Assembly (NCBI RefSeq): GCF_024700885.2
Contig: NZ_CP117016.1
DNA: 64,000 nucleotides
DNA from: Escherichia coli
GTDB taxonomy: Bacteria > Pseudomonadota > Gammaproteobacteria > Enterobacterales > Enterobacteriaceae
Direction: 5' to 3' (one strand)
Of this stretch, positions 36,113 through 36,309 are shown piece by piece (position 1 is the stretch's first letter; each line of letters opens with the position of its first letter). The notes below the pieces were generated by a model. The model was not told where the DNA came from, did not search any database, and saw only the letters and a program-made list of their open reading frames with translations. The translations under genes and the position numbers were made by a program.

Positions 36113-36163
36113 CGGTCTCGCTCCAGTTAATCAAATCACGCATACGCGCTCTCGACTACAGTA

Positions 36164-36179
36164 TGCATCTTTTATGCCA
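36164..36179 (-). promoter_or_regulatory. sigma54 promoter of fdhF (TGGCAT-N5-ATGCA)
   Basis: Minus-strand reading TGGCATAAAAGATGCA, about 50 bp upstream of the fdhF ATG. Confidence 0.6.
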
Positions 36180-36244
36180 CATTTTATTTGGGGTCATTCC
36201 CTGATATTACGGGCACTATTTATTCAAAACTCTGACGAAAAACA

Positions 36245-36300
36245 GGCTGTCGTCAGTTTTGACGTGACGAAACGAAATACCGCGTGACAGCCATCACGCG
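36245..36300 (-). promoter_or_regulatory. Candidate FhlA upstream activating sequence for fdhF
   Basis: Repeated TGACG/CGTCA motifs (gtcgtcagttttgacgtgacga) about 100 bp upstream of the sigma54 element. Boundaries approximate. Confidence 0.35.
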
Positions 36301-36309
36301 GCAGACATT

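Follow-up and report, generated by a model that had tools for sequence, protein, structure and literature searches.

The fdhF control region of Escherichia coli: a sigma-54 promoter with a probable FhlA enhancer upstream

The spacer between mdtP and fdhF in Escherichia coli is almost certainly the classical fdhF control region, comprising a sigma-54 promoter and a formate-responsive FhlA enhancer. It occupies positions 36113-36309 of the window, which is the whole 64,000-nucleotide stretch of contig NZ_CP117016.1 (assembly GCF_024700885.2) that was analysed. The fdhF promoter and its FhlA enhancer are already known, and have been since the late 1980s; the gene counts among the founding members of the formate regulon, and its promoter is one of about twenty classical E. 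coli sigma-54 promoters. Observed here are the elements themselves, their unusualness within the window, their conservation, a helically phased spacing, the joint loss of promoter and enhancer from some lineages, and identity with published sigma-54 sites. The picture of fdhF control is unchanged by these observations, and the locus makes a useful positive control, in that an initial annotation made from the sequence alone found a real promoter and enhancer.

The coding sequence of fdhF, which encodes formate dehydrogenase H, occupies 33965-36112 of the minus strand, where a pair of open reading frames is split by a TGA; the assignment agrees with the RefSeq annotation of the identical region. 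The in-frame UGA selenocysteine codon (35695-35693, minus strand) is the reason that a mechanical list of open reading frames shows the gene as pieces of 139 and 559 amino acids. The selenocysteine context of this codon is confirmed by a match to the Rfam SECIS_2 model (35646-35700, minus strand, 87 bits), which spans the UGA and was the sole match in an Rfam scan of 33500-37000. On this strand, fdhF is preceded by mdtP (36310-37776, stop codon 36312-36310). Because fdhF starts at 36112 and mdtP ends at 36310, the span 36113-36309 (197 bp) is exactly the mdtP-fdhF spacer, and thus the whole intergenic region. The Shine-Dalgarno sequence of fdhF, GGAG (36121-36124, minus strand), stands 8 nt 5' of the ATG (36112-36110) and is invariant in a six-sequence alignment of five taxa.

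The window is chromosomal DNA of E. coli. Among 5,426 complete genomes of this species, 5,419 contain a match to a 601-nt query taken around the spacer, in many cases at 100%, and the annotation there reads mdtP, then fdhF. Relative to K-12 MG1655, the spacer carries a single base change (36188, A versus C), located just 5' of -24. This is the only difference from K-12 fdhFp and its FhlA upstream activating sequence (UAS), which have the same locus, the same predicted start and the same 41-nt leader. A 63-codon open reading frame that crosses the control region on the plus strand (36096-36287) was rejected, because conservation here falls into discrete blocks and lacks a codon pattern.

The promoter GTGGCATAAAAGATGCA is located at 36164-36180 on the minus strand and was recognised by pattern and matrix scans, by identity with a ChIP-seq site and by conservation. 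Its GG (36178-36177) and GC (36166-36165) dinucleotides are 10 bp apart. The element that the initial annotation had taken for a -24/-12 promoter, TGGCAT-N5-ATGCA, reads TGGCATAAAAGATGCA and occurs once, at 36179-36164 on the minus strand, 51 nt 5' of the fdhF ATG. Bare patterns of this type are not above chance, with a mean of 0.61 per shuffled window and at least one match in 42 of 100 shuffles. A scan with an RpoN matrix, proposed in the annotation as a check and run with a published matrix that summarises 186 promoters (PMC7658346, Table 2), placed the fdhF site at 13.8 bits, rank 2 of about 128,000 window positions, where 1.3-1.9 matches as strong are expected per shuffled 64 kb. Among the best 12 matches in the window, just the fdhF site and a site upstream of pspG fall outside long open reading frames. 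The fdhF promoter therefore stands above chance by virtue of its context (its location outside long open reading frames, its position and its conservation) and not by its motif match alone.

Published data, from which sigma-54 occupancy is taken, identify this element directly. In E. coli K-12, the fdhF site OS41 was detected by ChIP-seq with a fold-above-threshold of 41 and a start predicted 41 bp 5' of the gene, and is marked as experimentally confirmed in EcoCyc (PMC4591121); the 17-mer in the window is letter-identical to its motif. Genomic SELEX showed in vitro binding of the fdhF/mdtP spacer by reconstituted RpoN holoenzyme (PMC8743547). The orthologous Salmonella site, TGGCATAAAACATGCATA, is positive by ChIP-chip, and the same study, working with a promiscuous activator, counts Salmonella fdhF among the sigma-54-dependent genes, at a microarray value of 29 (PMC3844500). 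Together with the retention of the element in most of the species described below, these data bear out the proposed fdhF sigma-54 promoter. By the rule that +1 lies 19 bp 3' of the sigma-54 motif centre (PMC4591121), transcription is predicted to start at 36153 on the minus strand, giving a 41-nt leader (36153-36113). A search of 35900-36600 detected no sigma-70-like promoter. The predicted structure of the leader RNA is no more stable than those of shuffled sequences (z = +0.95), and the GGAG ribosome site is unpaired in it.

Upstream of the promoter, the enhancer module extends over 36289-36232 on the minus strand, or about -136 to -79, and consists of a distal TGTCAC, TTTCGTCACGTCA-N4-TGACGA, and TTTTCGTCAG. 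The core UAS, TTTCGTCACGTCAAAACTGACGA (36250-36272, minus strand), was delimited by conservation and contains the 14-mer dyad CGTCAAAACTGACG (36264-36251). The proximal block TTTTCGTCAG (36232-36241, minus strand) is the second copy of a direct repeat, TTTCGTCA, whose copies are 32 bp apart, or about three helical turns. Repeat analysis gives the direct repeat TGACGAAA at 36233-36240 and 36265-36272, and also nested inverted repeats (CTGACGA/TCGTCAG and TCAAAACT/AGTTTTGA). The distal TGTCAC (36284-36289, minus strand) is probably an enhancer half-site, and lies also in the 3' arm of a terminator-like stem that follows mdtP.

The richness in TGACG/CGTCA to which the initial annotation had drawn attention is real and unusual. 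These pentamers start at 36233, 36251, 36260 and 36265 (plus strand), and their clustering, four within 45 nt, is the sole maximum of the 64 kb, attained in 2 of 200 shuffles. The estimate that the block lies about 100 bp upstream was roughly right: it sits 55-110 bp 5' of -24, and the centre of its core is near -103 from the predicted start. Three copies of TTTCGT within 50 nt are likewise the sole window maximum, attained in 1 of 200 shuffles. The density of GTCA/GTCG tetramers is ordinary, being attained in 193 of 200 shuffles. The spacer between enhancer and promoter is A/T-rich, and no IHF consensus WATCAANNNNTTR, allowing up to 1 mismatch, was found in 36113-36309.

A hairpin resembling an intrinsic terminator of mdtP (36268-36303, minus strand) was detected by a terminator scan just 3' of the mdtP stop codon. 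It comprises a stem-loop (36303-36278) with an 11-pair G+C-rich stem, formed by the inverted repeat CCGCGTGA/TCACGCGG (36301-36280), and an interrupted T-rich tail, TTTCGTTTCG (36277-36268). A 64-nt stretch containing it folds as RNA at -20.9 kcal/mol (z = -2.5). Judging from these features, the hairpin would act as a terminator for mdtP. Its 3' arm holds TGTCAC and its tail enters the enhancer core, so that terminator and enhancer overlap in Escherichia. The most distal inverted repeat of the block that had been annotated as an enhancer, 36303-36278, is this terminator-like hairpin.

Conservation was assessed in the fdhF loci of 80 species, nearly all Enterobacteriaceae, which were fetched by using the N-terminus of FdhF and aligned with the promoter as anchor. 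Of the 80 species, 77 have the -24/-12 element, located 35-68 nt 5' of the ATG. The core enhancer, defined by the pattern [CT]G[AT]CA[CT]G[AT]CA-N4-TG[AT]CGA, occurs in the identical 77 species, and all three species that lack the promoter also lack the core. Core and TGGCA are separated by 90-91 bp in 69 species; in the other 8 the spacing is 81-82 bp, shorter by one helical turn. In 68 species the proximal block keeps a fixed offset of +30 relative to the core. GTCA[CT] is found 16-20 bp 5' of the core in 64 of the 77 species, most of which have no mdtP upstream.

Mean identity to the window sequence over the 73 non-Escherichia species follows the same blocks. It is 0.72 for TGTCAC (36289-36284), with adjoining sequence unconserved, 0.85 for the core block TTCGTCACGTCAAAACTGACGA (36271-36250), 0.91 for the proximal block (36241-36232) and 0.88 for the promoter block (36180-36163), against about 0.25 for the flanks and the inter-block segment 36283-36273. 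Conservation ends at about -140, since beyond Escherichia another gene lies upstream, and the module therefore travels with fdhF. In the three species without the promoter, Entomohabitans teleogrylli (L076), Leclercia sp. 29361 (L080) and Enterobacter sp. BIGb0383 (L083), promoter and core have been lost and visibly decayed versions are seen at about 1180-1500 of each locus sequence; remnants of the proximal block stay. This pattern suggests regulatory decay or rewiring in these lineages. The quantisation of enhancer-promoter spacing by one turn, the co-loss in three lineages and the Escherichia enhancer-terminator overlap are small refinements of what was known.

The assignment of the module to FhlA draws first on the literature, from which the dependence on FhlA and formate is taken. 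Reviews state that formate-activated FhlA controls fdhF along with hyc, hyp and hydN-hypF. In Proteus mirabilis, the activity of an fdhF reporter drops in fhlA and rpoN mutants. The fdhF UAS was reportedly mapped by Birkmann and Böck in 1989 to roughly -140 to -100, which would agree with the position of the conserved blocks. An FhlA consensus, CATTTCGTACGAAATG with half-site TTTCGT, is quoted from Leonhartsberger et al. (2000) in PMC4987338. Two published descriptions of the FhlA site were tried as detectors and dropped. The 16-mer consensus agrees with the fdhF enhancer at 9 of 16 positions, and genuine hyc sites score no higher, so it fails to discriminate even real sites. The published 13-site matrix finds its best match in the spacer at the dyad (36264-36251) with 8.2 bits, which is rank 101 in the window; its two best matches fall in the hycA-hycB spacer and in the hyc-hyp intergenic region.

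A comparison with hyc and hyp control regions, which the initial annotation had also suggested, yielded support from one approach and none from another. Smith-Waterman alignments of the fdhF enhancer with the hyc-hyp, hydN and hyfA control regions gave no score above shuffles. A 14-mer matrix made from fdhF orthologues only, applied to the 21 kb of K-12 from hypF to fhlA, placed the hycA-hycB spacer site CGTCAAAAATGACA at ranks 2-3 and the hydN upstream site CGTCACTAGTGTCG at rank 5; the hyc-hyp intergenic site was not among the top matches in this 21-kb scan. The fdhF dyad is identical to its hycA-hycB counterpart at 12 of 14 positions. Like fdhF, the hyc/hyp and hydN-hypF enhancers have short GTCA/TGAC-type dyads with A/T-rich centres, located 5' of a sigma-54 promoter. 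They share no colinear similarity with fdhF past the short motif, and the hyc/hyp units have GTCG/CGAC more often than GTCA. Also, the listed activators of hyc and hyp include IHF, whereas the fdhF spacer is without an IHF consensus. These indirect tests are mixed and, on balance, supportive of an FhlA enhancer. The conserved and promoter-phased module, the three TTTCGT copies, the matches at hycA-hycB and hydN, and the literature together support the proposed assignment of the block as an FhlA enhancer.

Two other explanations were weighed. The upstream repeats might consist of the mdtP terminator plus chance repeats and be no enhancer at all, with fdhF expressed by read-through or from a sigma-70 promoter. 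It is true that the hairpin and its T-rich tail (36303-36268) overlap the distal end of the block, and that in Kluyvera and Salmonella the two arms of the hairpin show covariation, as in an RNA stem. However, the core and proximal blocks (36272-36232) lie 3' of the hairpin and are kept in about 70 species that have another upstream gene, the search of 35900-36600 for a sigma-70-like promoter found none, and sigma-54 occupancy is documented. We therefore regard an origin of the repeats in termination and chance as very improbable.

Just as improbable, in our estimation, is an enhancer used mainly by another sigma-54 activator, such as the FhlA paralogue HyfR. Paralogous activators have similar DNA-binding domains, and the published FhlA matrix scores the fdhF site modestly. 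Nevertheless, FhlA control of fdhF is stated in reviews and primary work, the P. mirabilis reporter falls in the fhlA mutant, and the places matched by the fdhF-derived motif, the hycA-hycB spacer and the region upstream of hydN, both belong to the FhlA-controlled formate regulon.

With FhlA as the activator, the arrangement suggests the following mechanism. Sigma-54 RNA polymerase would sit on the -24/-12 element (36180-36164) as a closed complex, unable to start alone. Cytoplasmic formate would activate the enhancer-binding protein FhlA, which would bind the GTCA/TGAC and TTTCGTCA repeats of the UAS (36289-36232), where its contact bases are predicted to lie. The protein would then reach the polymerase by looping out the A/T-rich spacer of roughly 55 bp, and ATP hydrolysis by FhlA would open the promoter, with transcription probably beginning near 36153. 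The mdtP terminator hairpin that abuts the enhancer may insulate fdhF from upstream transcription.

Two further conserved segments go unexplained by the classical model of a promoter plus FhlA. The spacer block CCGTAATATCAGG (36200-36212, minus strand) has most positions 50-90% conserved, compared with a baseline of about 25%. The leader element GCGCGTATGCG (about 36149-36139, minus strand) is conserved in species with long leaders and deleted in the Enterobacter group. The spacer block may bend or phase the DNA, or bind a further protein. That one of these two segments is bound by a further, as yet undescribed regulator of fdhF (for instance, one through which molybdate, nitrate or oxygen acts directly), or is a sequence-encoded bend replacing IHF, seems to us an unlikely but not negligible idea. 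A direct repeat of 11 nt, reading AAATAAAATGT on the fdhF strand and exact in both copies, is found at 36179-36189, just 5' of -24, and again at 36305-36315, right after the mdtP stop.

The window holds two sigma-54 promoters, as the initial annotation had stated, the second being that of pspG (84-326). Its promoter, TTGGCATGATTCTTGTA (32-48, plus strand), is identical to ChIP-seq site OS40, with a distance of 25 (PMC4591121). In the sigma-54 ChIP-seq tables, pspG and fdhF have the sole sites for genes b4050-b4109. The pspG promoter is of the same class as that of fdhF, with TGGCAT-N5-TTGTA, a short leader and ChIP-seq confirmation. It differs in its activator, PspF, in being IHF-dependent, and in its -12 element, which reads GT whereas that of fdhF reads GC. 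A perfect IHF consensus, AATCAATAGATTA (16-28, plus strand), lies directly 5' of the pspG promoter, and the PspF enhancer of pspG falls beyond the window edge.

The top RpoN-matrix match of the window is TGGCGCGGCTTTTGCG (54901-54916, plus strand, 15.1 bits), which is antisense within an open reading frame at 54371-55159 and is absent from the published ChIP-seq sites. A genomic SELEX peak for NtrC/RpoN has been published upstream of yjcS, and a third sigma-54 promoter was sought in the corresponding spacer (about 43356-43600, mapped from K-12); the best matrix score there is 2.9 bits, so this candidate was rejected as having no credible motif in this strain. The pspG and fdhF motifs lie 36,132 bp apart here and 36,630 bp apart in K-12 by the ChIP-seq coordinates, so that this strain differs from K-12 by a net length of about 498 bp within the interval.
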